Assembly (NCBI RefSeq): GCF_963921235.1
Contig: NC_086108.1
Location: forward strand, 52,516,001 to 52,580,000
Reading direction: 5' to 3'
Origin: Mobula hypostoma
Lineage: Eukaryota
DNA: 64,000 bases
The translations under genes and the position numbers were made by a program. The notes beneath the pieces are model-generated. The model was not told the DNA's origin. It worked only from the letters and a program-made list of their open reading frames with translations, and ran no database searches. Shown one piece after another: positions 11,643-64,000 of this stretch (the stretch's first letter is position 1; the number at the start of each line of letters is the position of its first letter).

Positions 11643-12911
11643 TATTGCTGCTTTTTTCTATACTTGCCTTCATGCCACTTATCTTAAAGATGATGATTAC
11701 AGAACTACAATATGACTCCATTGGCATGCTTCAGTCATCTGGTAGCTTGCTTAAAGTATCCACTTTTCCATGAGCCTAAAAATCATTAATCTGGCTTTTT
11801 TTCTGTTGGCCTCTGCCTGAATTCCACTGGCAGGTTACTCAATATCAGAAAAAGATAGGAAGCTAAGATTATCATTTTCCTCCATTTTTATTTGTCCATC
11901 TCAGTTTTGCATCGATTTGTATGCTTCTGAAATTGTAATTGAATCATTTAGTTTATCACTGTAATTAAATTCTGATTTATCCTTGCCAGTTATGTTGGTA
12001 TTATACACAATTCTGTTACTTAGAGAATCAAAATAGTCTTATTTTTAGCCATGAACGTTATACAGAAATGTTCTGGGACAAATTCAACTATCCCTGTTCT
12101 TACTTCCTGCTTCATCTGACCCCTCCCACTCCCAATTCGTAATATATATTCATAATATTTACTGTGGGATATGGGCATCACTGGCAAGCCATCATTGTTT
12201 GAACTGCTGTACGCTCTGGTGACTGTATTTTCAAGTGCAATTGAATAGGGAGTTCCAGTGCTCAGACTCTGAGGGTAAAGGAATATAGATCTATTTTCAA
12301 GTCAAGATGCTAGGTGACATAACTCCAAAGGCATGTTCCTGATGAATTGGTGGTAGAAATTGTGGATTTAGGAGGTGCTATGCATTGTACCTTAATAACC
12401 TTCGTAGTGGTATATCCAAAGTATTTTGCAAACCAAATCTACATTGATTGTTTTCCCTTCCTTATTCTAATTATGATTACTAAATCTGTTTTCTGGCTAA
12501 TTTGATAAATATGAATCACAGCTCAGTACCACTAAACCCATTTAAGGTAACTCACTTGATTTTGATTCAACTAGCAACCATTTCACTTGCTTACATATTA
12601 CAGAGAGCTAAAAATGAATTTCTTTTCCCAAACCTTGTATTTTAAAGTTTAACATTTTAATTTTCTGTATCAAAATCATAGACAGATTTATTATCACTGA
12701 CTTACTTGTCATCAGTTATCTTGTCTCTTCTTTTGAAGACTGATCTTGGAGTTCATGACTTTGGTTTAATGTAACGACTAAGTTGTATGAATAATATGAT
12801 TATTGCAGTTGCCATTTAACAGCATAAGTTCTAGTTCTGTGCAAAAAGCAAATTAAATGAGAGCACAAGTGTCCCACCAAATAATTAATAGACTGTCCAC
12901 ATGTATTTTAG

Positions 12912-13651
12912 AGAGCTGAATCCAATGTATGACGGATATCTCCAGCATGATGCACAGGAAGTTTTGCAGTGTATTTTAGGATACATCTTAGAAGCTTGCC
13001 AGTTATTGAAGAGTCATGCATCTGCTGAAGAAAAGATTGATCCTGAAACATGTGTGGAGAATAAAATATCCACTGAAATCGCTGAAATATCTTCTGAAAT
13101 CTCAAGCGTCAGAAATGTTGTTGTACAAGAAAACCATGAAATGCCCGATCTGGAGAAAGAGGAAACGCTGAAGAAGAAAAATGGTAAAAGAAAAAGTGTT
13201 ACGCAAGAGGGCAATGCCATGAAAAGGTCTAAACTGCCAAAAGATCCAAAAAATATACAAGGGAAGCGACAAACTAAAGGGAAGAGAAAATCTTCGGGAG
13301 ACAATATTGAGCAAGAGTTTGATACTGATACTAGGAATGTATCTGAAAATAGCACTGCTGGCATGGTTGCCCAGAAAAAGACACGACTTGGGTTAAGGTG
13401 GCTGAAGCCAACAGTGAACCAGCCAAGTATACTTTCAAAATTCTGTAGTCTTGGAAAAGTGACATCAACCATAAGCACAAAAGAACCAAGTAACAATGAT
13501 GCAAGTGGATGTCAGCCAAATTATGCTGTAAACTCAGTGGTGACAGATTACCACTGTTCTTCATCAGGCTCTGCAACCCAATGTGATAAGGAAATCAGTG
13601 AGAAAAATCAAGACCTGTGTGAAATTGAGGGTACGAGCACAAGTAAAGCAG
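12912..13651 (+). CDS. USP1: USP1 exon 6 (large insert-1 exon)
   Basis: ELNPMYDGYLQHDAQEVLQCILG...QPSILSKFCSLGK; tttag acceptor, gttagt donor, phases 2/1 consistent. Confidence 0.96.
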
Positions 13652-14194
13652 GTTAGTAAGTCTACAAGTTGCATTACATTTTTTTCTTTTGAACCAAATC
13701 AAGGATTCATTGATTTTCTTAATTGACATTTCGTAATGCCATTTGTAAGTTGGACCCATCTAAATAAATATTCTGGGAATGGTGCCATTATTAATAAACA
13801 TTTTTCTACATAGAGTTGTAAGAAGGTAAATAAGAGCGGGGGGGGGGTGCGTGAAGAAAAGGAAAGCTACAAAATGCAAATACGTTGAAAGTTAAGAAGA
13901 ATGGGAGATGCATGTTGAGATCTTATCAAAAAGCCATCTGGTTAATATTAAAACATACTTGTAATTTACAGTTATACAGTACAGTAGTTAACATCTTTTC
14001 CACTGAACTTGGTAGGTTTGAAGGAACACGATAAACTACTAGGTGAGTTTTTAAGGTACTGTAGGAACCAAAGTCTGTGTGTTGGAGAGTGTGGTAATTG
14101 AGGCTCCAAAGCATCAGGATTTCTGAACAGTTGGATAGTGATTTAGTGATCAGCCAGCTAATACTCTACATTTGGAGTTTTATTTAAAGTTGCA

Positions 14195-14648
14195 TGTGAA
14201 GGATTGGGATAAAATGGCTCTGGGCCTGTATTCACTAGAATTAAGAAGAATAATGGGTAACCTTATTGAAACCTATCGAATGGTGAAAGGTCTTGATAGA
14301 ATGGATATGGAGAGGATGTTTTCTATGATGGGAGAGTCTAAGACCTGAGGACATAGCCTCAGAATAGAGGGGTGTTCTTTTAGAATGGAGATGTGGAGGA
14401 ATTTCTTTAGCCAGAGAGTGGTGAGTCTGTGGAATTCTTTGCCACAGGCAACAGTGGAGGCCAAGTCTTTATGTGTATTTAAGGCAAAGGTCGATAGATT
14501 CTTGATCGGTCAGGGCATGAAGGAATATGGGGAATATGGGGAGAAGGCCAGAGATTGGGGCTGAGAGGAAAATTGGATCAGCCACGATAAATTGGCACAG
14601 ACTCGATGGGCCAAAAGGGCCTATTCTGCTCCTATATTGTATGGTATT
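14195..14648 (+). mobile_element. CR1 LINE 3' fragment
   Basis: Typical CR1 3' end (gaggaatttctttagccagagagtggtg...gactcgatgggccaaaagggcctattctgctcctat). Confidence 0.75.
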
Positions 14649-15378
14649 ACAGCTTTACAGCTTTTTGATAATTGATTATTTTCCAACACATTTCCTATTT
14701 AAAACTAAGATCTGACTAATGAAGGTGACGCTGCTGAGTATTTTTATAGAAGATGCAAGCTACTTATTTCCTTATTTGTATAACTATATTCCACATGGCA
14801 TACTTTTAATGCTTGTGGACAATTCAATCATTTTTCCATGTTAGTACAATGATTAGGTACAATGGTATTGTAAAATATCAAAGGGGAATCTATTTCCTCC
14901 TTTAATCGGGTTTATAATTGTGGCCCTCCGCAGGAGAAAGTTTGAAATGCTTTTCTTGTCTCTGGATTGTATCACATCATTCGAAACTGTATTTGAGCTT
15001 TAGTGTTTCTCTTTTTCTTTCAATTTGTGATCAACTGTTGTTTAGTTGGAATTTACAGAGGAAGTACTCAATTGCCGTTTAAATTTTATGATGAGATTTG
15101 TATGTGGCATTCCATATATAGAAATGCTTCCTATACAATACTTAATGGTTTCTAGCATTTGTTGCCTCATTCATAATGTCTCAGCAAATAATTTGGTTTG
15201 CTGATATCTGTTCCAGTGGATAAAACAAAAAGATATGAAATATTCTGACAGGCAAGTGTGCAGGAACTTTACCTTTTGCAAATTATCTGTTTCAAAAATT
15301 TCAACTCTCTTGGCTCCACAGACACATGGTTTCTGTTTTACAAACTGTTGTTTTAACAGTTGCTTTTTGTTTGTCTAG

Positions 15379-15537
15379 AGCTGTCTGGCTTAGAGATGAT
15401 AGATGGAATGTTCCAAGGACAATTAGTCCTAAGGACACGATGCTTAGAGTGTGAGTGTTACTCTGAGCGAAGAGAGAATTTCCAAGACATTAGTGTACCT
15501 GTTCAAGAGAATGACACCAAGGACAAAGGATCTGAGA
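15379..15537 (+). CDS. USP1: USP1 exon 7
   Basis: FQGQLVLRTRCLECECYSERRENFQDISVPVQE; ctag acceptor, gtaagt donor, phase 1/1. Confidence 0.96.
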
Positions 15538-15964
15538 GTAAGTTATTAAATAAATAGACTTCTACCATTACTGTGGCAACCTGGAAATAACTTGATTTGC
15601 AGTTAGTAAATGCAGTATTTAATTTTATAGTGGTGCAGCATCTGATTTTAGTGCTGGAAATCTGATATAAAAGTAGAAAATGGTGGAAGTACTTAACCTG
15701 CTGGGTATTCTCTCCTTTCCCTATTTATCTTTTTCTCTTGCACTTGGGTAGATTGGAGGAAGACTGAGAGTAGTGGTGGAGAGGTGTTATTCTGACCAAA
15801 GGTTTGTGACCATTGGTGTTGATAGTGTATTGTTTGTGTGTGGTCAACATAGATTGGCAGAGTTGTACGTTTGTAGAAAACTTGGTTATTAAATGATTAA
15901 GCAGTATATAGTTCAGTTGGAAATGTTGACAAAGAAATCACAGATGGAGTTTAATCTGAACAAG

Positions 15965-16086
15965 TATTATTGCCCTGGATTTAAAACTAGGATGGAATTT
16001 ATGAATGACATAATCATCAGGAGTCAAGAGATGCTGAAGAGTGACAAGGATCCCAAAACAGACCAGGTAATTCAGAAGGAAAATAA
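15965..16086 (+). pseudogene. Intronic duplicate of USP1 exon 4 plus 20 nt of the following intron
   Basis: 122-bp match to 10151-10272 with 4 substitutions, including the gtaatt donor. Confidence 0.92.
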
Positions 16087-16197
16087 GATTAATTAAGATT
16101 AAACAATGTCACGAGCCTTGTGGCCCATCAGGCCGGTGCTTATGCTGGTTTACGTGGCGTGAAGCGACTGAGAGTATAAGACCCCCCCCCCCCGATA

Positions 16198-16347
16198 GGC
16201 GTGTGGCCAAGTGATTAGGGCGTTGGACTAGCAATCTGAGGGTCGTGGGTTCGAGCCTCGACTGAGGCAGCGTGTGTGTCCTTGAGCAAGGCACTTAACC
16301 ACACAATGCTCAGTCTACCCAGCTGAGAATGGGTACTGACAAAAATG
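16198..16347 (+). mobile_element. tRNA-derived SINE
   Basis: A-box-like tggccaagtga, B-box ggttcgagcc, followed by the SINE core gtgtccttgagcaaggcacttaaccac. Confidence 0.75.
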
Positions 16348-16747
16348 CTGAAAAAGCGTGTGCAAGCAAGGAGGCCTACAAACCTGACTCAGTTACACCA
16401 GTTCTGTCTGGAGGAATGGAACAAAATTCCAGCAACTTACTGTGAGAAGCTTGTGGAAGGCTACCCAAAACATTTGACCCAAGTTAAACATTTTAAAGGC
16501 AATGCTACCAAATACTAACAAAGTGTATGTAAACTTCTGACCCACTGAGAAAGTGATGGAAGAAATAAAAGCTGAAATAAATCATTCTCTCTACTATTAT
16601 TCTGACATTTCACATTCTTAAAATAAAGTAGTGATCCTAACTGACCTAAGCCAGGGAATGTTTTCTAGGATTAAATGTCAGGAATTTTTGAAAAACTGAG
16701 TTTAAATGTATTTGCTTAAGGTGTATGTAAACTTCTGACTTCAACTG
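16348..16747 (+). mobile_element. Right half of a Sleeping Beauty-like Tc1 transposon
   Basis: 16348-16518 encodes LKKRVQARRPTNLTQLHQFCLEEWNKIPATYCEKLVEGYPKHLTQVKHFKGNATKY*; full right IR/DR with two gtgtatgtaaacttctgac repeats ending ttcaactg, then TA. Confidence 0.9.
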
Positions 16748-16991
16748 TACATGTAAAATTCAGTAAAAATATTGTTTAAAAAAAATCTGACCTTATGGGG
16801 ACAGGGAGTGGAACTACTTGGATTGTTTATACACAACTGATAGGAATCAACAGACCAAATGGTCTCCTTCCAACTGAATCACTGGGGAGTCAGTCTGTGA
16901 AGTCTCTTGAGGCTGATTCTAGGAACTAAAGGGAAAAATTACAAGAAAAGTTGGAGTGATTTTTTGATTTTTGTAATTCCATTTCTTCCAG

Positions 16992-17193
16992 TCTCACCAG
17001 AACCGAAGATGGAGATAAAAACACTGAACTGGGCAATATCACAGTTTGCTTCAGTGGAAAGAATCGTTGGTGAAGACAAATATTTCTGTGAAAACTGTCA
17101 TCATTACACAGAAGCTGAACGCAGCTTGTTGTTTGACAAGATGCCAGAAGTTGTGACAATCCACTTAAAGTGCTTCGCAGCATGTAACTCGGA
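16992..17193 (+). CDS. USP1: USP1 exon 8
   Basis: (I)SPEPKMEIKTLNWAISQFASVERIVGEDKYFCENCHHYTEAERSLLFDKMPEVVTIHLKCFAA; ccag acceptor, gtaagt donor. Confidence 0.97.
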
Positions 17194-18194
17194 GTAAGTA
17201 TGAAAATTGATTAAATCAATGTAATCTGTTTTATACTGCTACCCCCAACACTTTTCTTTGCTCTTTGTTATAAATAGCCATCATATTTGACTGAAAGCTA
17301 GAGGGATAACAATTTCACATTCCTGTGTATTATTTAAGAATATGAACAATTTCTCTGTTCCCCCAGTAGTGCAAAGTATTTATTTTTCAGGTGAAGAGAA
17401 TGACGGATAGGGGTGGGTAGTTGTTTATTGATAGTATGCCAATGTTGGCTGCTTTGTTCTGGATAGTTTGAAGCTCCTTGAGAATAATTGCAGTTGTATC
17501 CCTCCAGGCAGGTGTGGAGTATTCATTTGCAGCCTTGACTTTGAGCATATAGATGGTGAAAAAAATTTGCAGTAGTAGGAAGTCAGTCATTTGGTGCTGC
17601 TCAACCAGCCTCTGACCTTCTCTTGCCAGCACACATTATTTGTGGTTGGACCAGTTGAGTTTCTGCTGAATAATGTCTCAATTTTTGACGGTGGGGTAAT
17701 CTGGCATTGAATGTTGATTGCCTTTGTTGGAGATAATCATTGTTTGGCACTTCTGAGATACAGAGAAGCAGAAGAATGGACCATTTTTAGAGGTCATCTA
17801 TGTGAAATTACTTTTTTCATGGACTAGATATAGCAACTAAGGCTACATGCAAAATATTATACGAACCTACATTAGAGTCGTAGAGGCAGTGGGCTCTTTG
17901 GCCCAACTGGTGATCCTCTCTAGTAACTTAGCTACTACAGACGTTAGACTTACTGTCCTACAGTTCCCAGAATTTTATTGGTTGCTGCCCTTTTTTTTTT
18001 AAAGTAAAGGCCCAATATCCTCCACCATACCAGCGCCTCACTCATGGTTAGCATTGATGCAAATACCTCTGAGCTCTTCCAATTTCTTTAGCCTACCACT
18101 GTATTCTTGGATTTATACGGTCAGGCTCTGGAGATTTGCCTACCTTCATAACTTTTAAAATTTGGAGCATGTCCTGCACTGAGAAAAGATTAAA

Positions 18195-18400
18195 AAAGAT
18201 TAGCTTTATTTGTCACATGTTCATTGAAACATACAGTGAAATGCGTCAGAGTGTCACCATGCTTACAGACCAACAAGGCATGGCCAGAACTTACTTACCA
18301 TAACCCATTCATCTTTGGAATGTGGGAGGAAACTGGAGGCACCCTGAGGAAATCCACACGGTCACGGGGAGAACATACAGATTCCTTACAGACAGTACTA
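18195..18400 (-). mobile_element. V-SINE/HE1-like SINE remnant
   Basis: tctttggaatgtgggaggaaactggag..cacc..gaggaaatccacacggtcacggggagaacatacaga core; related copy near 44170-44330. Confidence 0.6.
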
Positions 18401-18533
18401 GGGTCTTCCAGCTGTTTTTGCAGAGCTTTACCCTAACCTTTACACTACTATGTCTGCAATGTGGACTACTGCCCAAGACCTCTCCATTCATATCTCACTC
18501 TCCCTCTCTCGTTATAATTTCTCCATTAAAATA

Positions 18534-19458
18534 CAGTCGGCCCTCCTTATCCGCAAGGGATTGGTTCCGGGACCCCTTGCAGATACCAAAAAATGCGGAT
18601 GCTCAAGTCCCTTATTCAACCTGTCTAAATGCAGTGGGACTTTAGGACCCAGTGGAACCCTGGACCTTATTTAACCTGTCTCAGTGCGGTGGACATTAGG
18701 ACCCAGCGGCGGAGCTCTGAATCCACAGTGTTTCCATTCACGAAAATAATCACAATCGCAATTTAAAATAAAGTGGAAATAATAAAGCGATCGGAAAGAG
18801 GTGAAATGCCATCGGTCATTAGAAAGGCGTTAGGCTACAGTCGGTCAACGATCGGAACAATTTTAAAGGATAAAATGAGAAAGGCCCTGCCCCGATGAAA
18901 GCTACAATTATTACTAAGCAACACAGGGGTTTAATTATTGGGTTTTGGGTTTTTGATCCTTCACATCAACCCGGCAAGGATGGACAGCACGCTTGGGAGC
19001 GATCTGTCACTGGATCGAACTCGGGAATTTCCATTCCCGAGCCCGGCGCTGAAACATACATCTCTTAAGTGTTTTTTATGCATAGAAAGGTAAAATATAT
19101 ACTATATACTAAGACAAACGTTTGACTAACTGACGCTAAATAATACCAGATGTACCTGTTCCAACTTACTTAGTAAGAGAACTTACGGGTTTTTTTTTGA
19201 TCCCGATCCATGACAACCTATGCACATCCTCCTGTATACTTTAAACCATCTCTAGGTTACTTATAATATCTAATACAATGTAAATGTAAATGCTATGTAA
19301 AATAGTTGTTATACTGCATTGTTTAGGGAATAATGACAAGAAAAAAAAAGTCTGTACATGTTCGAACAACAAGTGCTGGAAGTGCACTTCCGGGTTTTCT
19401 TGATTCGCGGTTGGTTGAATTCGCACATGCGGAACTCACGGGTAAGGAGGGCTGACTG
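18534..19458 (+). mobile_element. Tigger/pogo (MER2/Tigger3-like) internally deleted DNA transposon
   Basis: TA TSDs; TIRs cagtcggccctccttatcc / ggtaaggagggctgactg; CENP-B-type HTH remnant KVEIIKRSERGEMPSVIRKALGYSRSTIGTILKDK at about 18770-18875. Confidence 0.88.
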
Positions 19459-20039
19459 TACTTAATTTCTTTGGCTTATCCTTTATTTTCTCAGCCAAAG
19501 TTATTTCACGCTTCCTTTATCTCCTTCCAATGCCAACATACACCAAATGCTGGAACAATTCAGCAGGGCAGGCAACATCTATGGAAATGAATAAACAGTC
19601 AACATTTTGGGCTGTGACCCTTCTTCAGGGCCTCAATTTCCTATGACATTCTCCTAGCATATGACACTGGAAGTAATCCAGAGATTACTACTCTCAAGGT
19701 CCTGCTTTTTAACTTCCTCCCTTGTTCCCTATATTTACTCTGCAGGACTTCATCCCTTTATCTACCTATGTTATTTGTGCCAATCTGCACCATTTTTGGA
19801 TGTTTATCCTCCACCTTGAGAATGTTACATGCAGAATTAATGCATTTGTCACAAATTACCAGAGCTGGAAAACATATTTAATGCACCGTCCCTATCTAAA
19901 AGAGTAGAAGTTTCAGTTTATGATTGTGACATTAGAATGTAATCCAGTGTTTAAATATTTGGAGTCTGTGGCCAGCATTGAATTCATGAATGATCTTGAG
20001 ATTCCCACAAAATCCAACCATGTTTTAGACTTTAGAGAG

Positions 20040-21420
20040 TCATTTGGTCCAACTCATCCTTGCTGACCAACACTAATTCCATTTACCTGCAGTAGCCCCA
20101 CCTACATCATTCTACTCCTTTCCTATCCAAGTTCAAATTCCTTTTTAAAATGTGTAATTGTATATACCTTTACCACTTTATCTGGCAGTTCATTCTGTAT
20201 AATCATTTCCCTCTGTGGAAAATCTCACTCTTGAATCTTCTTTTAATTTCTCTCCCCTCACCTTAAACATGCCCTCTAGTGTTTACACTTCTCTTCCCTG
20301 GGGAAAAAGCTTCTGCCTATACTGTCTATGCCTTCAGAATTTTATATTCCTCCACGTCTCTCAGCTTACATTTCAGTGAGAATAGACCCAGCCTATCCAA
20401 TCTCTTTTAAGTTAAGACTTCTATTCCAGACAACATGCTAATGAATCTCCTTTGAACTCTTTCTAATCCTGCCACATTGTTCCTGTAGTATGGTGACTGG
20501 AACTGTACATTGTTCTGTGTGGCTTGACCAATGTTTAGTGAAGTTGTAATATGAAGGCAAAATGCCAAGTGCCACCTTCCCTACGCTCTCTACCTGTATT
20601 GCCATTTTTAGGGAGCTGTGAACTTACACCCCAAGATCTCTACCATTTATTATACATGTCCTGTTAGTGTTTGATTTCCCCAAATGCATTACCTTCATCT
20701 GTCTGAATTAAATTCCCTTTGCCTCCCTACCCAACTCCCACTGTGTCTCTCACAATCTTCACTATCTACTGCTCCACCAATTTTTATGTCACCAGTGACC
20801 CTACTGAAAAGTCTACCATATATGATAAGTTTCTGACAAATAACAACGGTCCCAGCACCAGTCCCTCTGGTAAATCACTAGTTACTGACTAGTCAGAAAA
20901 AGTGCCCCATGATCACTTGTTCCATATAACCAGCACACTCTGTGTAGGAAAAACTTGCTCCTTGGATCTCCTTTAAATTTCTCCTGTTAAACCAATTTAA
21001 GCTCATCAATTTGCTTATAACGTACTCAGAAGAACTCATCTGATTTGTGAGACAAGATTTCCCCTTGCACAAAATAATCAGCCTCTGCCTTTCCAAGAGA
21101 ACATTAATCCGTTCCTTAAATTTTTTTCCCCAATAGTTTTCATTTAATTGATGAAATGCTTATTGGTCTGTAGATTCCTGGCTCATCTCAACTGCCCTCT
21201 TTGAAAAAGGGAGTATCATTCGCTACCCTCTGTGGCTAATGAAGATGCAAGAATCTTTGTTAGAGCTCCAGCAATCTCCTCTCTTGCTTCCAAAAGCTTC
21301 TTGGGATTGATTTCATCAGATACTGAGAATATATTCACCTTTAATGGTGGCAATATCTCTCAACAGTTCCTCCTTCATGACAGATCTGTTCCACAGTATC
21401 AGTGTAATCCCCTCCAACTC
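20040..21420 (-). mobile_element. Decayed CR1 LINE fragments
   Basis: Reverse-complement CR1 3' region and RT remnants (e.g. LCKGKSCLTN); boundaries approximate. Confidence 0.6.
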
Positions 21421-22057
21421 TCCATCCTTCAAATCCTTGCTCCTGCTCATACCTCTTGGCTCCATGTATAAATTCAGCATTGTAATTGTTTTGCTTTCCA
21501 GTAAGCTGTTTGAAAAATGAGATCTCAGCTGTTGGAGATGTTACTCTCTGGAATTAGTTCACAAGGACAACAACTGTGAAGACTAATTCTCAGCAGTACA
21601 AACATTTTTAAACATTATACTGTGCTGCTTAAAGATCAAAACATAATTAGAAGGTGATATAACACAAAACTCTTGTTTTAAGCTGTTCATGTAAAGACAC
21701 TGCACTTAAGATAAAAAAAATTTTTGGGGCAAATCAATTCTAGATATATCTGTTATTAAGATTTATAATACAATACAAAGGGTCAGAGTTAGAGTTATTT
21801 TACAGCAGAACCAGTTCATATTCATCAGCTGGCATCAGTTCAAGTGAATGTTCTTCATATCATTGTAGAAGGCTACAACTGGAGGCGACTGTATTGGTTC
21901 TATTACCAAATCAACAAAAGAAACTTTGTAATTTCTACGAAACATGGAAACCCTCAAGTTGCTGTTATATTCATGCAGAAATAATGGTGAATGGCAGTTG
22001 TTGCACTTATAAAATCTAGACCTATATCATTGCCACTCATGGTCTCTTTGCTTTTAG

Positions 22058-22826
22058 GTTGGAACCTTATGGCAATCTCTCAAAAGTGAACACTCCCTTA
22101 CTGACTCCTCTTACACTTTCACTGGAAGAATGGAGTACTAAAGAGGCCAATGACAGCTATGAACTATTTGCTGTGGTTATGCATAATGGGGTGAGTATTA
22201 GTAGTGGTCATTACACAGCCTATATAAAAATGACATATCTTGGCAGTCAAGAGATGACCAATGAAGAACCTGCATTGAACTGTGCATATAGTACGAAACA
22301 GGAATCAGTCAGTGAAGAACAGGCAAAAATCTCTATTTATTCACATGAATATGATGATGGAGAAATATCAGTGAAATTAAAAGGAAACTTCCAAGCAGCA
22401 GCATCTGGTAAAACTACAAAGAAGAATGCAGAAAGTGTTGGACTCCTAGGTGGACAAAAAAAATTGTCTGGCTTTGAACCGTACGCCTCCAAGAATAAGA
22501 ATGACCCTGAAAAACCTGGTTTTGCACTGAAAGAAAATGACAAATTGGACCTGGTTAACCTTGAAGACAAATATAATGGTTTCCTCAACAGCCAAAGCAG
22601 TTTTAACAGTCTATGTGGAATACCAAAAATTGGAAGAAATACCCCAGAAAATGGGGTTCCTCAACGCTGCTGTAGTCTGCAGGAGTATGAAGGAAAATGG
22701 ATGTTGTTTGATGATGCCGAGGTGAAGCTTATAGATGAGCAAGATTTTCTCAACTCACTTTCTCCATCGACCTCTTGTACATCAACCCCATATTTGTTGT
22801 TTTATAAGAAAATGGCAAACCCATAA
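22058..22826 (+). CDS. USP1: USP1 last coding exon (His box, Gly-Gly autocleavage site, stop)
   Basis: LFAVVMHNGVSISSGHYTAY, VGLLGGQK, WMLFDDAEV, TPYLLFYKK; tttag acceptor; TAA at 22824-22826; spliced CDS totals 2442 nt. Confidence 0.97.
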
Positions 22827-46552: not shown

Positions 46553-46741
<189 letters not shown>

Positions 46742-53261: not shown

Positions 53262-54457
53262 TGAATTAGGATATACAGTGAAAGAATATAGGAACTACAA
53301 ACTCAAAGTAGTGAAAATAATAGCAAAAGATATTCAAATCTCTTTAAAGCTACAAATAAAATTATTTCCTTAATTACAGTAAAAACAATTTTCATCAACA
53401 ATTTTACAGTGTACATTAGTAGTTCAACTATTCACTGCTTCATTGCTTTTCAAGTTTCAATGAGATGGATGGGCCTGGTGCAATGATATCAGCTTCTCAA
53501 TATCAGGCTGAAGGTCCCAGGAGTTTCCAATCCACATGTTCAGTCATTTGTGCCCGTTTCCTTGCTTTGAAAGAAGTTGGGTGACTGCACTGAAATTGTG
53601 CTCCACTAAATATGATATTGGAAAGGCAATAGAGAACATTTTGAAATTTTTACACAGTACAGGATATTGTTCAGAGATTTCTTACCGCAAGCAAAAGTTT
53701 TGATATGATTTTTTAAAATCCCAGCTTCAGCTCAAAATCAACTTGTGGAGAGATCAGTTCTGCCACCATCCTTCCTGTTACTACCTCATTACAAGAATCC
53801 AGGAATGGAATTATTACTCAATCTAGAATTTGGATCAAGAGAAGTTCCTGAAATCTCCCTGACATGTCTTTGTGCAGTTCACCCAGGTGGTCACAATACG
53901 CTTGAAGATCATTATCTGGTATGCTTTCTTTCTCTTCCAACTGAGAGAGACTCGGCAATTGGAAAAGGCTGTGAGGGCCAATGTTGCACTTAAATAGGGT
54001 TAACTTGGACAGAAATGCGGATACAGCTGATTTGACTTTGATAAGATTCACATCATGTCCTTGCAATTAAAGATTGATTTCAGTAAAATTTGTAAATAAT
54101 TCTGACAAATAAGTAATGTCATGCCTAATATTCTTGAATTGATTACTGAATGCATTTGAGTCTTCAAGGAATTTCATCAGTTACAAATAGTGCAAAAAAG
54201 CATCTCAGGTAGTTTCCTTTTGAGAGCCATCTGACTTCTGTGTCCAAAGCAAGCAGATAAACCATTCATCAATCTCAATACAAAGCTCTTGAAATAGTTG
54301 AGAATTGAGAGTATGGGACTTGACTTTATTTACCGATGTGATAACAGTATTTTAAAACGCAAACAACAGGAATTCTGCAGATGCTGGAAATTCAAGCAAC
54401 ACACATCAAAGTTGCTGGTGAACGCAGTAGGCCAGGCAGCATCTCTAGGAAAGGTAC

Positions 54458-54493
54458 AGTCAACGTTTCAGGCCGAGACCCTTCGTCAGGACT
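54458..54493 (-). ncRNA. Minimal hammerhead ribozyme motif (GUU triplet variant)
   Basis: Reverse complement AGUC-CUGACGA-AGGGUCUCGGCCU-GAAAC-GUU-GACU. Confidence 0.65.
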
Positions 54494-55641
54494 AACTGAA
54501 GGAAGAGTGAGTAAGGGATTTGAAAGTTGGAGGGGGAGGGGGAGATCCAAAATGATAGGAGAAGACAGGAGGGGGAGGAATGGAGCCAAGAGCTGGACAG
54601 GTGATAGGCAAAAGGGATACGAGAGAATCATGGGACAGGATGTCCCGGAAGAAAGACAAGGGGGGGGGACCCAGAGGATGGGCAAGGGGTATATTCAGAG
54701 GGACAGAGGGAGAAAAAGGAGAGTGAGAGAAAGAATGTGTGTATAAAAATAAATAACGGAGGGGGTACGAGGGGGACGTGGGGCATTAGCGGAAGTTAGA
54801 GAAGTCAATGTTCATGCCATCAGGTTGGAGGCTACCCAGACGGAATATAAGGTGTTGTTCTTCCAACTTGAGTGTGGCTTCATCCTTACAGTAGAGGAGG
54901 CCTTGGATAGACATGTCAGAATGGGAATGGGATGTGGAATTAAAATGTGTGGCCACTGGGAGATCCTGCTTTCTCTGGTGGACAGAGCGTAGGTGTTCAG
55001 CAAAGCGGTCTCCCAATCTGCGTCGGGTCTTGCCAATATATAGAAGGCCACATCGGGAGCACTGGACGCAGTATATCACCCCAGCCGACTCACAGGTTAT
55101 ATATTGGCGAGACCCGACGCAGACTAGGAGACCGCTTTGCTGAACACCTACGCTCTGTCTGCCAGAGAAAGCAGGATCTCCCAGTGGCCACACATTTTAA
55201 TTCCACATCCTATTCTGACATGTCTACCCACGGCCTCCTCTACTGTAAAGATGCAGCCACACTCAGGTTGGAGGAACAACACCTTATATTCCCTCTGGGT
55301 AGCCTCCAATCTGATGACATGAACATTGACTTCTCTAACTTCCGCTAATGCCCCACCTCCCCCTCGTATCCCATCCATTATTTATTTTTATACACACATT
55401 CTTTCTCTCACTCTCCTTTGTCTCCCTCTGTCCCTCTGACTATACCCCTTGCCCATCCTCTGGGTTCCCCCCCACTTGTCTTTCTCCCCGGGCCTCCTGT
55501 CCCATGATCCTCCCATATCCCCTTTGCCAATCACCTGTCCAGCTCTTGGCTCCATCCCTCTTCCTCCTGTCTTCTCCTACCATTTTGGATCTCCCCCTCC
55601 CCCTCCCACTTTCAAGTCTCTTACTAACTCTTCCTTCAGTT

Positions 55642-55677
55642 AGTCCTGACGAAGGGTCTCGGCCTGAAACGTCGACT
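55642..55677 (+). ncRNA. Minimal hammerhead ribozyme motif
   Basis: AGUC-CUGACGA-AGGGUCUCGGCCU-GAAAC-GUC-GACU. Confidence 0.75.
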
Positions 55678-56692
55678 GTACCTCTTCCTAGAGATGCTGC
55701 CTGGCCTGCTGCGTTCACCAGCAACTTTGATGTGTGTTGCTTGATAACAGTATTTAATGGTTTGTGCAATTGAAAACTTAGATTTTTGCGACAAGGTGTT
55801 GTTTGTGAATTACACAATGGTACATATGATAGGTACAAGCTTTTTTCAAGAAAGTAATAGCCCCATGGTGATGGGACTGCCTGGACTTGTTGCCTGGCAA
55901 AGTTGATTCATCCAACTGTAGAGCAAATTCTGTTGTCCTAAATATGTTGCACCAGTATCTTCCACATTCTCAGACATTTAATTCATTCATCTTTGAACAG
56001 AGTTGTCGCTGAGTAGAATAGCTTTAATTATTTGGTTTGATGACTAATGCAAAGTTGGTTTCAAAACCTCCATTACTGCTGGCAGATCAGTTCTTCTCCA
56101 ATTGTATGAGGCTTTCCAGATCTAGCAATGAGCAATGAAATGTATGAAGCACACAAACCATCACTGTTTTGTTGTGAAGCACAGACAAACATGTTTTGAA
56201 GTGTTTTTCATTTCTGAAAGTTTTCATAGAGTGATTGAAAGTACGCCAAGTTCCTGTTTGCTTTATCAGAGTGCACCCTCTTCAAATGTTCAAGGAGCCT
56301 GGACAGTTTCATTGCCTCATTTGAAAAAACTTTTTCACACAACAGATACATTGGCTGAGTTGGTTGTTTGGTGCTGGAATCAGTCCATATTTCAGATACT
56401 CCTTTTATACTGTCTATACTTTTTTTTGTTCGATCTGCTTCTGCCATTTTCATGATGGATTAATACCGAGAGTCAGTCACTTATTGTTTAAGGCCAACCT
56501 CAAACACTGTGATCAATAAAGGCAAAAGTTATGACATAATCATAGCTCAGGCAAAACCTAACTCTCTGTCTGAAGGTACTTTAAGGGGGGGGCGGGGAAG
56601 CATTATCTTGATTGGGCTGTGGGCTAGACAAATGAAGTCAAGACCATTCGAAAGAGCAGATTCTGAACCTTCCCCTATTGAATGCCATACCC

Positions 56693-57553
56693 TGTTACGA
56701 GAATACACATAAAATTAAGATGTTTGCTGGCCTGGGCTAGCATCAGTGGCATCAGCAGTTGGTCTGCCACCTGCCCTCAGGGGAAGGAGAGATAAGGAAC
56801 AATGGAGCAGCGTCTGGAGATGTGTAATGAAGGGATGTGGGGGAGAGAGCTGTCTGGAGCGGCTCCCCCCCTTTGAACCCTGAACTGTTTGAAGTGATGG
56901 ACAGGCGATACCCCAGCAGGGGGATTAAAAAGGGACAGGTTCGCTAAGACAGACACACACGCCACCCGAGGTAACGAGACCCTGGAAGCGGTACGCTTCT
57001 CACGAGTGGGTGAGAAGTACCAGACAACGACCAGGGTGGAAAGGTACGATCAGCGGGAACCCGGTGTGTGTCCGCCCTTGCCTGGGTGCCGGGTTCACTG
57101 CAGAGGATCGACCGCATCTGGAGGAGGGGTCACAGTCGGTGACCTCAGGTGACATCACCAAGGACCCGCCCAAATGCTGTTTGTGAGCCATCTCGCTAGT
57201 CTGTGAGTGAAGCCGTTCTGAATGATGAGTTGTTCCTGTTCTCTCTGTCTCTTCCCCCACGTTGTCCACCGCCATGGCAACGATTACTGCGAACTGAACT
57301 ACTAACTGGACTGAACTTTGAGTCATTTTGAAATTGGTCATTTACCCCTAGACAACGATAGAGCTTGATTGATGCTGTTATCTTAATTCTGTGCACATGT
57401 GCGTTTATCATCGCTGAACTGTTGCATTTATTATCCTTTCGATTAATGTGTTGCTTGTTTCTTTAATAAAATTTTCTTAGTTCTAGTACTCCAGACTCCA
57501 ACTGAGTGATCCATTTCTGCTGGTTTGGCAACCCAGTTACGGGGTACGTAACA
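56693..57553 (+). repeat. 5' LTR (861 bp)
   Basis: tgttacg...cgtaaca terminal inverted repeat; about 5 differences from the 3' LTR by eye. Confidence 0.96.
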
Positions 57554-57557
57554 TAAG

Positions 57558-57576
57558 TGGGGTTCTCGTCCGCGAT
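57558..57576 (+). promoter_or_regulatory. Primer binding site, degenerate tRNA-Pro type
   Basis: tggggttctcgtccgcgat versus canonical TGGGGGCTCGTCCGGGAT, 4 nt after the LTR. Confidence 0.7.
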
Positions 57577-57652
57577 TTTGAACGCTAAATTTGGGACGGA
57601 GTAAATTGATTGGGTTAAAATTCCCGAAAGAAAGAAAAGACAAACAGCAGAA

Positions 57653-58979
57653 ATGGAGGTTGAGGAATTTATAAAGGCGCCGACCTTGGAGGCATTAGAG
57701 GATGCCAGGAAATCGGAATTGATAGCTGTGGCCAAACGGGTGAATCTTGCTAAGGTGAAGTCGACAATGAGGAGAGAGGAGATACACAGAGCTATTGTAG
57801 AGCATTATGTATCTAAAGGTGTGTTTCCCCAAGGTGAGCTGGGGGTGGTGTCTATTGAAAAACCTGCTGGAGACGCGGTACAGGTACAGCTTGAAAAACT
57901 GAGACTCGAGCACGAGTTCCGGGTACGGCAGTTAGAACACGAAGAGAAGCAGTTAGAAAGGCAGGAGAAAGAGAGAGAGTTAGAAAGGCGGGAGAAAGAG
58001 AGAGTTAGAAAGGCGGGAGAAAGAGAGAGAGTTAGAAAGGCGGGAGAGAGAGAAAGAGGTAGAAAGGCAAGAGAGAGAAAGACAGTTGGAGAGAGAAGAG
58101 AGAGAGAGGGACAGACAGTTGGAGAGAGAGGAGAAACAGAGGGAAAGGGAATTTGAGCTGGAGAAGTTAAAGATAAGGGCCGAGCAGGGGCTCGTGCCGA
58201 ACCAAGGTGGAGGGTTCCGGGCGACCCAGGAGGTTAGGCTGGTTCCCCCATTTGACGATACCGATGTGGATCGGTACTTTCTCCATTTCGAAAAAGTGGC
58301 TATAAGTCAGGACTGGCCGAGGGATAAGTGGGTTGTTTTACTTCAGAGTGTACTGAAAGGGAAGGCCCAAGAAGCTTACTCCGCTTTATCCGCGGAAGAT
58401 GCCCAGAAGTATGAGGTGGTGAAGGAGGCCATCCTCAGGATTTATGAGTTGGTCCCGGAGGCATACCGGCAGAGGTTCCGGAATGCGAGGAAGCAGTGGG
58501 ACCGCACGTATTTGGAGTTTGCTCGCGAGATGCAAACATATTGTGAGCGTTGGTGCGCCTCGAAAGGGGTAGAGGGGGATTATGACAGACTGCTGCAGCT
58601 GATTCTGATTGAGCAGTTTAAAGGTTGTGTCCCTGAGGGTATGAGACCCTACCTCGATGAGAAAGAGGCAGCCACGTTAGCCGCAACTGCTAAGTTAGCG
58701 GATGAGTATGCGTTGACGCATAAAATGAAGTTTGCCCCGAGTAAAGGCTACCAGAAGGGTAGTCAGGACGGAGGGGAGAGTCCGCCGGAAAAGTCAGAAA
58801 GTAAGCCGGGGACTAGTGAAAAGGATAAGGTAGACCGGGAGCAGTCTGGTCGGAAGTCTCCTGGGGTCGTCTGTTATAATTGTGGGAAAGTCGGACACTT
58901 TGCGTCCAGGTGCTTTGCCCCAAGGAAGGAGACGGGGAAAGGAAAAGCGGAAATTTTGAATGGCTGTATCGAGCTGTAA
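57653..58979 (+). CDS. gag (coiled-coil repeat, capsid/SCAN-like region, CCHC knuckle), one 2-bp frameshift near 58003
   Basis: ORFs 57653-58156 and 58086-58979; VPPFDDTDVDRYFLHFEK, YELVPEAYRQRFR, LIEQFKGC, CYNCGKVGHFASRC. Confidence 0.88.
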
Positions 58980-59822
58980 AGCGAACCGCTAGGGAAGGAC
59001 AGGTCTGAAAAAGTCCAGGAAGGGCGCGAGAGGTTTATCTCGGCCGGACTGGTGTCAGTGAAAAAGAGGTTAAAACCAGTTCCAGTGCGGATCTGGAGAG
59101 ACACGGGAGCGTGTCAGTCACTAATACTGAAGAGTGTATTAGAGTTTAGCTCAGAGACCCAGACTGGGGAGGTAGAGGTCAAAGGTGTTGGGGAAGGGAC
59201 AGAGTCAGTCCCTTTGCACCAGATACATTTACAGAGCAACCTGGTCTCTGGACTAGTCACGATCGGGGTGAGGTCCGAATTACCGATGAAAGACGTGGAA
59301 GTCTTGCTCGGTAATGACATCGCCGGAGGAATCGTGTTCCCAGTCGTGAGATTGACGGGTCAGCCTGCCAGCATGGAGGCCCCGCCCGCGATGGTGAATT
59401 TGGCTGAAACATTTCTGCCAACCTTGTATGAGACAGGGTGTAGTGAGATAAGAGGTAGTGAGGGAGCTGGGACGGACGTAGCAGTAGCCAGGAAAGAATT
59501 TGTGCAGACGCAGGAGCGAGACGAGGGGCTGATGGTTTTTGCCGAGACCGCTCTCTCTGACACAGCCTTGACAAGGGAACTGGTAGGCTATTGTGCGGAG
59601 GAGGAAGTGCTAAGGAAAAAAGGGAAATCAAGGACAGTATCCGCAGATGAGGAGTGGGGGGTGGTGCAAAAGAGTTATGGGGATGAGGTTTTTAACATGG
59701 CCCACGAGGTACCCCCCGGTGGACATTTTGCGGTGCTGGAGGAAACAGTTGGTGGAATCATGAAAGAGATTTACCGGCTGCCCGGGGGAAAAATGTTATT
59801 GATCATGACCGACGCGAACTGA
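58980..59822 (+). CDS. Aspartic protease followed by an integrase N-terminal remnant (same frame as gag, after a TAA)
   Basis: IWRDTGACQSLIL and VLLGNDIAG; then FNMAHEVPPGGHFAV resembling the HH half of the integrase zinc-binding motif. Confidence 0.75.
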   Translation, partial: SEPLGKDRSEKVQEGRERFISAGLVSVKKRLKPVPVRIWRDTGACQSLILKSVLEFSSETQTGEVEVKGVGEGTESVPLHQIHLQSNLVSGLVTIGVRSELPMKDVEVLLGNDIAGGIVFPVVRLTGQPASMEAPPAMVNLAETFLPTLYETGCSEIRGSEGAGTDVAVARKEFVQTQERDEGLMVFAETALSDTALTRELVGYCAEEEVLRKKGKSRTVSADEEWGVVQKSYGDEVFNMAHEVPPGGHFAVLEETVGGIMKEIYRLPGGKMLLIMTDAN

Positions 59823-59842
59823 GACGGTCACCGGCTTTTGAT

Positions 59843-60583
59843 ATGCTAACAAACCTAGTCGGTGTTAGCGTGGAAATCAATGAAGCTAGGGGCCCCCTGC
59901 TAAGAGGAAAAAACCATTTTGAAAAGATTAGGATGGGATCGGTCAGATGGGAGAAGGCTATTGTTTTGGCCAGGTCTACTGATAAGGTCTCTCCCTTAAT
60001 CCCCGAAGGAGTAATTAAACGACTCGCACCCATGTGTTTGATTGTCCCGAGGAAATGCAAAGAACTGGGACGTTGGGTGATTGTGGTTACAATAGGGCAG
60101 CCAAGTAAACAACACCCATATTTTTTGAGTAATTCAGTGACTAAAGGGCTGATGAACACAGAGGTGTGTATTGGCAATTTAATACGGCTGTCTGAAGCCA
60201 GTTTGATAGTGAACCTTGAAAAAAATGAATTCGGCCACACGAGGGTCACTTACCTGGGAATTGTGGTGACACAGGGGCAGCTGGCAGTGATGCAAGCTAC
60301 AGTGCAGGCTATCGCTGACCTCCCAACCCCGACAGACAAGAGGGCCCTCAGAAGGCTTTTGGAGATGGTGGGGTACTGCAGGAAGTTTTGCAATAACTCT
60401 GCGGTCAATACCCGTCCCCCTCCTACTAAGCCCTTGCGAGAGAAAACTGAGTCGGAATGGGACGACCCTTGTTATTGTGGTCCGGGACAAAACCAAATGA
60501 GAGGTTACATTGGTCGCAATTCATCAGTGTTTTTGGCCACTATGAAGTTTGCTGAGTTGGAGCCTGGTCTAAGGGATTATTAA
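59843..60583 (+). pseudogene. Collapsed reverse-transcriptase remnant, open for 246 codons
   Basis: QPSKQHPY, NTEVCIGNL (YIDD position lost), LIVNLEKNEFGHTRVTYLG, LPTPTDKRALRRLLEMVGYCRKFC; no RNase H. Confidence 0.8.
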
Positions 60584-60743
60584 TAACACGTGTAAAAGGA
60601 ACAGAAAATGTGATGACTGTCTGTCAAGGTGTTGACAGCTTCAAATTCTCTGTATTAGCTAAATAACTGTTAAAGATGTATATTGTGTATGTATCAGATA
60701 ATGTAGTCATGTTTGTAATTTTTACCTCCCGGTAAAAATCCTT

Positions 60744-60755
60744 AAAGGGGGGAAG
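60744..60755 (+). promoter_or_regulatory. Polypurine tract
   Basis: aaaggggggaag immediately before the 3' LTR. Confidence 0.9.
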
Positions 60756-61615
60756 TGTTACGAGAATACACATAAAATTAAGATGTTTGCTGGCCTGGGC
60801 TAGCATCAGTGGCATCAGCAGTTGGTCTGCCACCTGCCCTCAGGGGAAGGAGAGATAAGGAACAATGGAGCAGCGTCTGGAGATGTGTAATGAAGGGATG
60901 TGGGAGAGAGAGCTGTCTGGAGCGGCTCCCCCCCTTTGAACCCTGAACTGTTTGAAGTGATGGACAGGCGATACCCCAGCAGGGGGATAAAAAGGGACAG
61001 GTTCGCTAAGACAGACACACACGCCACCCGAGGTAACGAGACCCTGGAAGCGGTACGCTTCTCACGAGTGGGTGAGAAGTATCAGACAACGACCAGGGTG
61101 GAAAGGTACGATCAGCGGGAACCCGGTGTGTGTCCGCCCTTGCCTGGGTGCCGGGTTCACTGCAGAGGATCGACCGCATCTGGAGGAGGGGTCACAGTCG
61201 GTGACCTCAGGTGACATCACCAAGGACCCGCCCAAATGCTGTTTGTGAGCCATCTCGCTGGTCTGTGAGTGAAGCCGTTCTGAATGATGAGTTGTTCCTG
61301 TTCTCTCTGTCTCTTCCCCCACGTTGTCCACCGCCATGGCAACGATTACTGCGAACTGAACTACTAACTGGACTGAACTTTGAGTCATTTTGAAATTGGT
61401 CATTTACCCCTAGACAACGATAGAGCTTGATTGATGCTGTTATCTTAATTCTGTGCACATGTGCGTTTATCATCGCTGAACTGTTGCATTTATTATCCTT
61501 TCGATTAATGTGTTGCTTGTTTCTTTAATAAAACTTTCTTAGTTCTAGTACTCCAGACTCCAACTGAGTGATCCATTTCTGCTGGTTTGGCAACCCAGTT
61601 ACGGGGTACGTAACA
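60756..61615 (+). repeat. 3' LTR (860 bp)
   Basis: Direct repeat of 56693-57553. Confidence 0.96.
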
Positions 61616-62164
61616 ACCCTAATTCACAGGAATTGTGTCGCTGTGTGATTAGAGTATGGGAATTATACTAGCTAACACTGTACTACAATTGTGAGTGGCA
61701 AAAATGCATGGGCCAGCCCAGAAGTAACAAAAATTCTTCTGTCCAGATTTCTCATTATTTGTCAAATACGGAAGTGTCACATTGCCTTTCACCAAGTATA
61801 AGGGCTCTAAGCAAAGTTTAAGAGAATGGTGGGTTAGCAAGAGATGAGGTGATTACATGATGATTGTAATCAATGATGAGGCACCAAGGATCAAATGCTT
61901 ATAAGTAGTTATCTTCTTAAATTAAGCCTGTAATCCCACAGCTGCTCCATTTGCTACCGAATGTGCCCCCCCCCACCGTCCTATTTATCGCTTCCTTAGA
62001 AACTCCCACCATCCCCGGGGGGGGGGGGGGGGGCTGATATCAACCACTTTGGGAACAACTGCAGAGCTATCCCAACAAATACAGCTGTTGTGAATGTCCT
62101 CTATCCTTTATTACAAAGAGTTTTAATATGGAAACACAGGATAATGTAGCCTTGGTGATAAATA

Positions 62165-63728
62165 CAGTGCCTATAAAAGAAAGATATTCCCCCCCCCCCA
62201 CCCGGAAGTTTTCATGTTTTGTTTTACAGCATTGAATCACAGTGGATTTAGTTTGGCTTTTTTGACACTGATCAACAGAAAAACTCTTTCGTGTCAAAGT
62301 GAAAACAGATCTCCACAAAGTGTTTTAAATTAGTTACAGATATAAAACACAAATTAATTAATTTCATAAGTATTCACCCCCCTTCAAGTCAGTATTTAAA
62401 GATTGCACCTTTGGCAGCAATTACAGCCTTGAGTCTGTGTGGATCGGTCTCTATCAGCTTTGCACATCGGGACACTGCAATTTTTCGGCATTCTTCTTTA
62501 CTGTGGAAGCTCTGTCAAATTACATTGAGATTGTGAATGAACAACCCTTTTCAAGTCCATCCACAATTTCTCAATTGGATTGAGGTCTGGACTCTGACTT
62601 GGCCACTCCAGGACATTGACTTCTTTGTTTTCAAGTCATTCATCCGTAGCCTTGGCTTTATGCTTGGGGTCATTATCTTGCGAGAAAACAAATCTCCCAA
62701 GATGCAGTTCTCTTGCAAACTGCATGAGGTGTTCCTCCAGGATTTCCCTGTATCTTCCTGCATTCATTTTACCCTCTACCTTCACAAGCCTTCCAGGGCC
62801 TGCCGCAGTGAAGCATCCCCCCAGCATGATGCAGCCATCGCCATGCTTCACAGTAGGGATGGTGTGTTTTTGATCATGTGCAGTGTTTGGCTTACACCAA
62901 GCATAGCATTTAGTCTGATGGCCATAAAACACAATTTTGGTTTCATCAGACAATAGATCCTTCTTCCAGCTGACCTCAGAGTCTCCCACATGCCTTCTGG
63001 CAAACCCTAGTCAAGATTTCATGTGAGTTTTTTTTCCCAAAAGTGGCTGTCTCTTTGCCACTCCCCCATAAAGCTGCGACTGGTGAAGCACCCAGGCAAC
63101 AGTTGTTGTATGCGCAGTCTCTCCCATCTCAGCTACCGAAGCTTGTAATTCCTCCAGAGTTGTCTTGGGTCTCTGGTGCCCCCCCTCACTTGTCCCCTTC
63201 CTGCAGTCCCTCAGTTTTTGAGAATGGACTGCTCTAGTTGGAATTACAGCTGTGCCATATTCTTTCTGTTTCTTGATGATTGACTTTAGTGTACCCCAAG
63301 GGATATTCAGTGACTGGGAAATTTTCTTGTATCCATCTCCTGACTTGCTTTTCAATGACCTTTTTGCAGAGTTGCTTGGAGTGTTCTTTTGTCTTCATGG
63401 TTTACTTTTTGTCAGGATACTGACTCACCAGCAGTTGGACCTTCCAGATACAGGTGTATTTTTACTACAATCAATCGCCTGCACCAGTGGTGATTTGGTG
63501 TGTCATATTAAAGGAGGATGAACACTTAGGCAATCAATTATTTTGTGTTTCATTATTTGTAATTACTTGAGATCATTTTATGGCAATCTGTTTTCACTGA
63601 CACAGAAGAGCCTTTTTCTGTTGATCAGTGTCAAAAAAGCCAAATTAAATCCAGTGTGATTCAATGTTGTAAAACAATAAAACATGAAAACCCTCCTGGG
63701 GGGGGGTGAATATTTTTTAGAGGCACTG
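62165..63728 (-). mobile_element. Full-length decayed Tc1 (DD34E) transposon with long IR/DR ends
   Basis: TA TSDs; about 215-bp TIRs beginning cagtgcct; transposase remnant 63398-62389 with SGDGYKKIS, LSDETKI, FSQDNDPKH, SPDLNPIE, frameshifted. Confidence 0.92.
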
Positions 63729-64000
63729 TATTTGGTGATATGGTGATATATTGTTGAAGTAGCAGTTAAATGTAAAATGTTCTAAGGAAATGCATAAAGC
63801 ACCAAAAACCAAGGAGAAGAGACAGGGAGCATATGAGAGAACGTCTCACAAACAAATGTGACATTTACAGAATAGAAAAAAAAAAGTGATTTTCATTATT
63901 CCTAGTTCAGGACCCAAGCATTGCTAGTGTTATTTTCCCTTTTCAAGTCACCTTTGAACTGAGGTTTTGTACGACCATTTCAGAGGGCTTTTAGGAGTGG

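Follow-up and report, generated by a model that had tools for sequence, protein, structure and literature searches.

How does a retrotransposon family go on multiplying once its own copying enzymes are gone, and why would the remains of those enzymes stay open to translation? The question is raised by a long terminal repeat (LTR) element on the + strand at 56,693-61,615 of a 64,000-nt stretch of Mobula hypostoma contig NC_086108.1 (hereafter the window; all positions are window positions). An earlier note on this DNA had described the element as a recently mobile Gmr1-like insertion with gag and protease kept and pol collapsed. Here, we report that it belongs to a Mobula family with a polyprotein of the form Gag (SCAN, CCHC)-protease-remnant, in which integrase, reverse transcriptase (RT) and RNase H are catalytically dead through shared stepwise deletions. 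The family is probably a semi-autonomous Gmr1-like (Ty3/gypsy) element, mobilized by a helper and selected for an open frame over a new RT function; its mobilization in trans is something we infer. The single copy in the window is ordinary and broken.

Gmr1-like ancestry and the loss of pol

Gmr1-like elements are defined by a SCAN domain and the order protease-integrase-RT-RNase H (PR-IN-RT-RH), according to the descriptions given in 10.1101/2025.03.03.638093 and PMC8321522. The window element resembles them in its SCAN-type capsid (PF02023, E 8.6e-14, above the Pfam cut-off), its CCHC knuckle (Pfam, E 2.3e-6), its domain order, its single frame, and its LTRs, primer-binding site (PBS) and polypurine tract (PPT). 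The nearest full-length relative found, P0055 (Pristis pectinata XP_051888858.1), is 60% identical in the capsid and 52% in the protease, which carries the DTG motif. ESM Atlas features of the protease point to retroviral aspartyl proteases (0.94, 162 of 256 shared) and are taken as a lead; Pfam gave no match for the protease and remnant frames, and the protease had no PDB match either. Behind the protease, the remnants are colinear with P0055 (Pfam order SCAN, CCHC, IN, RT, RH) and hence follow the PR-IN-RT-RNase H order, so that the earlier assignment to Gmr1-like elements with a SCAN-related capsid stands. The Mobula family differs from these elements in having lost the DDE core, the RT catalytic aspartates and the RNase H core, and it cannot copy itself.

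The course of this loss can be followed with P0055 as the reference and three less-deleted Mobula proteins, P0019, P0009 and P0017, as steps. Relative to P0055, about 600 residues of Pol are missing. One large deletion (~290 residues) took the zinc-finger cysteines, the DDE core and most of the integrase C-terminal domain, a second (~128 residues) the RT fingers and palm including the first aspartate, and a third (~90 residues) the RNase H core with its first catalytic motifs; after these came seven smaller deletions, each of 5-18 residues, and three insertions of a single codon. Along the series, the YIDD motif passes from YIGD through CIGD to CIGN, and no intact DDE integrase, YxDD RT or RNase H is retained. 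The integrase N-terminal remnant that had been placed after the protease without a DDE core is there, with the His pair of its HHCC motif retained and both Cys gone, and the CIGN that had been set at the YIDD position does align to it. An alignment of P0009 to P0055 runs through the whole of the integrase end and IN-RT linker, with a score of 135 against 23 for the best of 2,000 shuffles. The claim that RNase H is absent has to be narrowed: the deletion took ~90 residues including the first catalytic motifs, whereas a ~20-residue patch (scoring above 2,000 of 2,000 shuffles, for a segment picked post hoc) and an off-frame C-terminus persist. Likewise, the 246-codon "RT remnant" of the earlier note is open across the deletions as described, but it is the 3' part of a single gag-pol frame, comprising ~105 codons of integrase end and IN-RT linker and ~110 of RT palm piece, thumb and connection.

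In the window DNA, none of the ten deletions and three insertions after the protease causes a net change of frame, although compensated frameshift pairs would be invisible in a protein-level comparison. The chance of ten in-frame deletions is (1/3)^10 = 1.7e-5, or 1e-3 at one half each. In the last ~30 ancestral codons, three frame changes are found. This off-frame tail would be an internal control, as frameshifts were apparently fixed where they hardly shortened the frame.

A family amplified after the loss of its enzymes

Three protein searches gave gene models of Mobula hypostoma and M. birostris. Five of these (P0014, P0038, P0041, P0044 and P0046, on four contigs) have the full frame of 939-1,004 residues from ATG to family stop, running uninterrupted through gag, SCAN, CCHC, protease and remnant. 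Among 270 scanned proteins, the integrase junction is carried by 21, the RT junction by 17 and the RNase H junction by 12, the window frame being counted in each. The 20 database proteins with the integrase junction come from two species, and all named carriers are Mobula; the sharing of deletion breakpoints, proposed earlier as a check, is therefore confirmed, and deletions private to this copy are ruled out. When 1.84 billion representatives were searched, the 150 matches listed included just two close relatives aligned across the integrase junction, P0009 and P0013. Contigs from runs with three organism labels traverse the collapsed region (run X9, 59,778-59,977, ungapped; run X15, 59,679-59,862, one gap), and an LTR end leaves into differing flanks in 138 records of run X1 and 111 of X9. 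Because the junctions are common to 20 database proteins and LTR-flank records are many, the family has amplified after RT and integrase were lost.

For three small indels, each pair occurs in all four combinations, as expected if copies recombine with one another or indels recur. No relative was confirmed among metagenome and viral contigs (0 of 55 and 0 of 12 pattern matches). Full-length Mobula Pol was absent among 61 long matches, where P0019 has an undeleted integrase start and ends early; gene models under-represent repeats, and this negative is weak evidence.

As a side observation, RefSeq isoforms labelled MACC1, PISD, UBE2G2 and PPM1Lb in Mobula (P0014, P0023, P0043 and P0048) are the element's frame, either through mis-annotation or as chimeric transcripts. 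The number of units in the E/R-rich gag repeat (57,942-58,147) differs widely between natural copies, with the frame preserved.

Probable constraint on the frame rather than the fold

Compared at the same loci, the remnant diverges 1.7-3.5 times faster than gag-protease (four of four loci tested, Fisher p 0.0008-0.046). A residue was called conserved when at least 80% of 28 full-length relatives have it in common with P0055. By this measure, 45 of 49 conserved residues survive in the family's capsid and 18 of 21 in its protease, as against 13 of 25 for the integrase N-part and 27 of 36 for the thumb. Down the series, the integrase N-part becomes less and less like P0055 (60, 51, 45, 39 and 35% identity), while the capsid stays at 58-60%.

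The placement of changes separates the domains further. Against P0022, capsid changes fall on 2 of 45 conserved and 40 of 111 other sites (p 2e-5), and against P0019, protease changes fall on 2 of 21 and 30 of 82 (p 0.018); in the deeper comparisons of both, conserved sites are avoided at p 2e-5, 0.025 and 0.018. In the thumb of the collapsed lineages, conserved sites are not avoided (9 of 34 vs 11 of 35 against P0009, p 0.79), with the same outcome in five of five comparisons. A Gly of the thumb that 21 of 28 full-length relatives share has been replaced by Glu in the collapsed proteins, 15 of 15 listed. The IN-RT linker was left out of this test because young copies aligned poorly. Structure prediction was uninformative (AlphaFold predicted local distance difference test score 29 with a six-row alignment; Atlas model 0.40).

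Capsid and protease are thus constrained in the family. The retention of gag and protease claimed earlier holds for the family, with its five full frames and conserved capsid and protease, and fails for the window copy, which has two frameshifts and a stop. The further suggestion that the open RT remnant signals a new role is not upheld, since the tests favour selection on the frame over the sequence.

A sister family in stingrays

Models from Hypanus sabinus and Hemitrygon akajei (P0024 and P0026-P0029) are like the Mobula family in having a Gmr1-like gag-protease followed by open codons (~330) in place of pol. They differ in the content of the filler, which is a decayed in-frame duplicate of the gag end, nucleocapsid and protease common to the two genera, and in their branch of the capsid tree. 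There, the stingray family is separate with 100/99 support (all 32 rows kept). In this tree, which is rooted at its midpoint only, the Mobula family, whose RT core is deleted, falls beside Hypanus P0022 (100/96) within a set of full-length SCAN-IN-RT elements. The frame ends 503-506 residues after DTG in three of five stingray proteins, against 490-505 in all six Mobula proteins measured.

Proposed mechanism

In the mechanism that we favour, RNA from the 5' LTR would be translated into Gag-protease-remnant, yielding capsid and protease, and the element RNA would be packaged by its own Gag, while mixed particles would let it use the RT and integrase of a full-length Gmr1-like helper. The ~370 codons after the protease would be filler whose residues themselves matter little. 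They may be kept open because ribosomes that travel to within ~1 kb of the poly(A) signal would shield the RNA or hold it on its way to packaging. Nonsense-mediated decay acts on long 3' untranslated regions. From the family stop to the AATAAA of the 3' LTR there are ~950 nt, whereas a stop just after the protease would leave ~2.2 kb. For Ty1, some translation has been suggested to be needed for RNA stability in the account of PMC3945221, where Ty1 nevertheless packages well in trans.

Several points weigh against selection for the open frame. At the two largest deletions, the junction falls on a repeated dipeptide (RR and RM), which could favour in-frame loss without selection, and database proteins are themselves selected for open frames, although the window copy is not. 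A test for the absence of stops gives weak support on a single branch (P 0.04-0.06) and reaches 0.006-0.0005 only over the whole path. Within Mobula, 9 of 12 capsid and protease site-test rows are not significant; coding variants visible number only 21, synonymous in 8 of 15 for gag-protease and 1 of 6 for the remnant, and these give no codon-level ratio of nonsynonymous to synonymous substitution. The thumb evolves at about half the rate of the other remnant parts (10-13% vs 17-25%), with p 0.015-0.19 in four non-independent comparisons and 0.05 against P0009. In the stingrays, the rate of the filler does not clearly exceed that of the protease (67-80% vs 73-82%), and two of five proteins end early. 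No helper was found in the 61 long matches searched.

Alternative explanations

The slow thumb also speaks for a protein role of the remnant. By itself or together with the integrase N-part, the thumb would bind nucleic acid or bring helper Pol into mixed particles. It is the slowest part of the remnant (the 73-residue block is 63% identical to P0055, with Ty3 RT as its best PDB match, and has the 27 of 36 conserved residues given above), it outlasted every deletion, and the PR-IN and IN-RT junction regions are both retained. We consider such a role unlikely: thumb changes do not avoid conserved sites and include the Gly to Glu replacement in a thumb motif, the identity lies about two standard deviations (SD) under the value for full-length relatives whose capsid is similar, and the sister family is served by an unrelated filler. 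The thumb is moreover CpG-poor (observed/expected 0.35 vs 0.60-0.89), which alone can slow it. A different account would place the requirement in RNA signals or in a genome that must not fall below some length if it is to be packaged or reverse transcribed, with the frame as a separate matter or a by-product of in-frame template switching. The in-frame microhomology at the two largest junctions and the near-equal length after the protease in the two families speak for it; no window folds below z = -2 in 59,350-60,760, eight other deletions and the off-frame tail are left unexplained, and the family kept shrinking by 4-18 codons per step. We hold it to be quite improbable. Ordinary decay or artefact has a very small chance of being correct; under this heading fall private deletions, a domesticated host gene, and LTR identity produced by gene conversion or a collapsed assembly. 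It is true that both frameshifts are sited in low-complexity sequence, and that one of the four LTR substitutions, the one at 61,082, involves two letters that are each frequent in the family (59% vs 41% of depth in X1). Yet the junctions recur in the 20 database proteins from two species and are crossed by contigs under three organism labels, the LTRs differ and are flanked by a target-site duplication (TSD), and many copies have LTRs. A domesticated gag or pol gene would be expected as a single orthologous locus with its LTRs lost and its frame intact, a picture that the two LTRs, the TSD, the broken frame and the many copies do not fit.

A more speculative proposal, which we hold to be rather doubtful, is that a capsid-donor form evolved twice in ray Gmr1-like elements. 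Shortened partners would add Gag-protease with a ~500-residue tail to single-frame helpers that make Gag and Pol one to one, and the tail, through its length or its RT thumb, would be needed for mixed-particle assembly and enzyme capture. If so, the tail would be a structural spacer or recruiter rather than filler, and element and helper would form a mutualism.

Age and state of the window copy

The LTRs, 861 and 860 nt long with TG...CA termini, are separated by four substitutions and one indel, and an intact TSD and PPT accompany them, so that the earlier count of about 5 differences in 860 and its perfect TSD and PPT are borne out. The pol collapse is far older than the insertion, as had been proposed, because the integrase remnant and linker differ by 16-29% in amino acids from M. 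birostris copies with the same deletions, against a divergence of 0.5% between the LTRs. Recent mobility can be maintained only relative to that collapse. Four substitutions in 860 (Poisson range 1.1-10.2 changes) correspond to 1.2-4.7 million years at an assumed 2 to 0.5e-9 per year, whereas the epaulette-shark pedigree rate of 7e-10 per generation, as quoted from PMC10587355, gives ~3 million generations, which is far older; the absolute age is thus 1-5 million years or far more by the rate chosen. Because both letters at 61,082 are common in the family, the LTR differences need not be a clean clock. No empty-site record appeared among the rows listed, and the flank is itself repetitive. Run X7, which is RNA only by guess, covers the element at a depth relative to X1 that is similar inside it (1.8-9.3 per 1,000) and in the flank (3.5-6.8 per 1,000), and so does not inform on expression. 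The single LTR indel sits in the TATA-like box of the 5' LTR (56,920-56,930), which is length-variable across the family.

The natural uninterrupted copy P0046 aligns to the window as three gap-free blocks in frames 2, 3 and 2 at 97-99% identity. The breaks are a frameshift in the gag repeat array (~57,950-58,150), the stop at 58,977-58,979 and a frameshift at ~59,783-59,800. The stop is rare in the family, with non-stop letters accounting for 243,075 of 243,879 depth units in run X1, 64,608 of 64,666 in X9 and all in X15; summed read depth is not copy number and is not used as such. The frameshifts, sited in low-complexity runs, may both be sequencing errors. The window copy would be a dead-on-arrival or since-broken member of the family.

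Feature map and genomic surroundings

The features of the element are collected in Table 1. The PBS departs from the murine leukaemia virus (MLV) PBS-Pro probe, as given in PMC4587795, by two mismatches and one additional base when compared by eye. No further copies of the element were found within the window.

Table 1. Features of the Gmr1-like element in the window.
Feature	Position	Strand	Basis
TSD ACCC, left	56689..56692	+	sequence comparison
5' LTR, 861 nt; TATA-like box ~56,924, AATAAA 57,465	56693..57553	+	
PBS, degenerate tRNA-Pro type	57558..57578	+	by-eye comparison with MLV PBS-Pro probe
gag N-terminal portion, ATG start; 99% identity to natural copy P0046	57653..57955	+	
27- and 33-nt repeat array, E/R-rich product, length differs between copies; contains first frameshift	57942..58147	+	
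Capsid; SCAN domain 58,455-58,724	58215..58724	+	Pfam
CCHC zinc knuckle	58869..58913	+	Pfam
In-frame stop, gag/protease boundary; ~0.3% of depth in run X1	58977..58979	+	
Retropepsin-type protease, DTG 59,100-59,108	59034..59348	+	
Integrase N-terminal remnant; second frameshift ~59,783-59,800; ~290-residue deletion junction ~59,810	59481..59812	+	
Integrase C-terminal end and IN-RT linker; ~128-residue RT fingers/palm deletion junction ~60,122-60,130	59813..60130	+	
RT palm piece; CIGN at YIDD place 60,167-60,178; 18-residue deletion next	60131..60184	+	
RT primer grip, thumb, connection start	60185..60470	+	
RNase H patch (~20 residues) and 11 off-frame codons; family stop 60,581-60,583	60500..60583	+	
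Ancestral RNase H C-terminus, split over three frames	60549..60635	+	
PPT	60744..60755	+	
3' LTR, 860 nt; AATAAA 61,527	60756..61615	+	
TSD ACCC, right	61616..61619	+	

The element is antisense to a DOCK-family gene (exons with DHR-2 lobes, - strand; nearest 46,553-46,741) and probably lies in one of its introns. Seven exons of this gene, five of them with DHR-2 Pfam matches, occupy 25,964-46,741 (-), tail to tail with a ubiquitin-hydrolase gene at 12,892-22,826 (+); we take the two to be DOCK7 and USP1. A near-palindrome of 1.35 kb at 54,392-55,744, 950 nt upstream of the element, has arms 91-98% complementary around a 55-nt loop and presumably represents an inverted Penelope-type insertion. 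The target site adjoins an 83-codon frame at 56,208-56,459 (-) that has no Pfam match and that we assume to be a hAT/Buster transposase fragment. Downstream, the 3' flank of the element is multi-copy, and a Tc1/mariner-type element whose terminal inverted repeats are long and whose transposase is broken lies at 62,160-63,733.

Relation to known systems and significance

Gag-protease-only LTR families in cereals and in-frame fusions in mouse intracisternal A-particle (IAP) elements were known before. In wheat, RLG_Sabrina_SA and RLG_WHAM (PMC9744471) and RLG_Quinta (PMC11302176) are described as semi-autonomous Gag-Pro gypsy families. As these accounts present them, such families and plant TR-GAG elements are like the Mobula family in keeping Gag (and protease), lacking RT and integrase and using partner enzymes; the Mobula family differs as a vertebrate Gmr1-like lineage with a pol patchwork fused in frame after the protease. 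The mouse IAP 1Δ1 type is described as a non-autonomous element with an in-frame gag-pol fusion, said to act in cis (PMC6466679; PMC7411935). The likeness lies in internal deletion leaving one gag-pol fusion frame. By these descriptions, IAP 1Δ1 arose in a betaretrovirus-like endogenous retrovirus through one 1.9-kb deletion that took part of gag, whereas the Mobula family has ten serial deletions, whole gag and protease, and a presence in at least two species. No literature on this family was found in a search that lay outside the repeat libraries (Repbase, Dfam) and the original Gmr1 papers, where it may already be catalogued.

The element's frame would account for the wrong RefSeq isoforms of MACC1, PPM1Lb, PISD and UBE2G2 in Mobula. 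What the rays add is a graded natural series of ten in-frame deletions with a built-in off-frame control, together with an independent sister family that carries another filler. With these, the question whether a non-autonomous LTR element may be selected for translation to the end of its frame, whatever the coded content, becomes testable on genome data alone.

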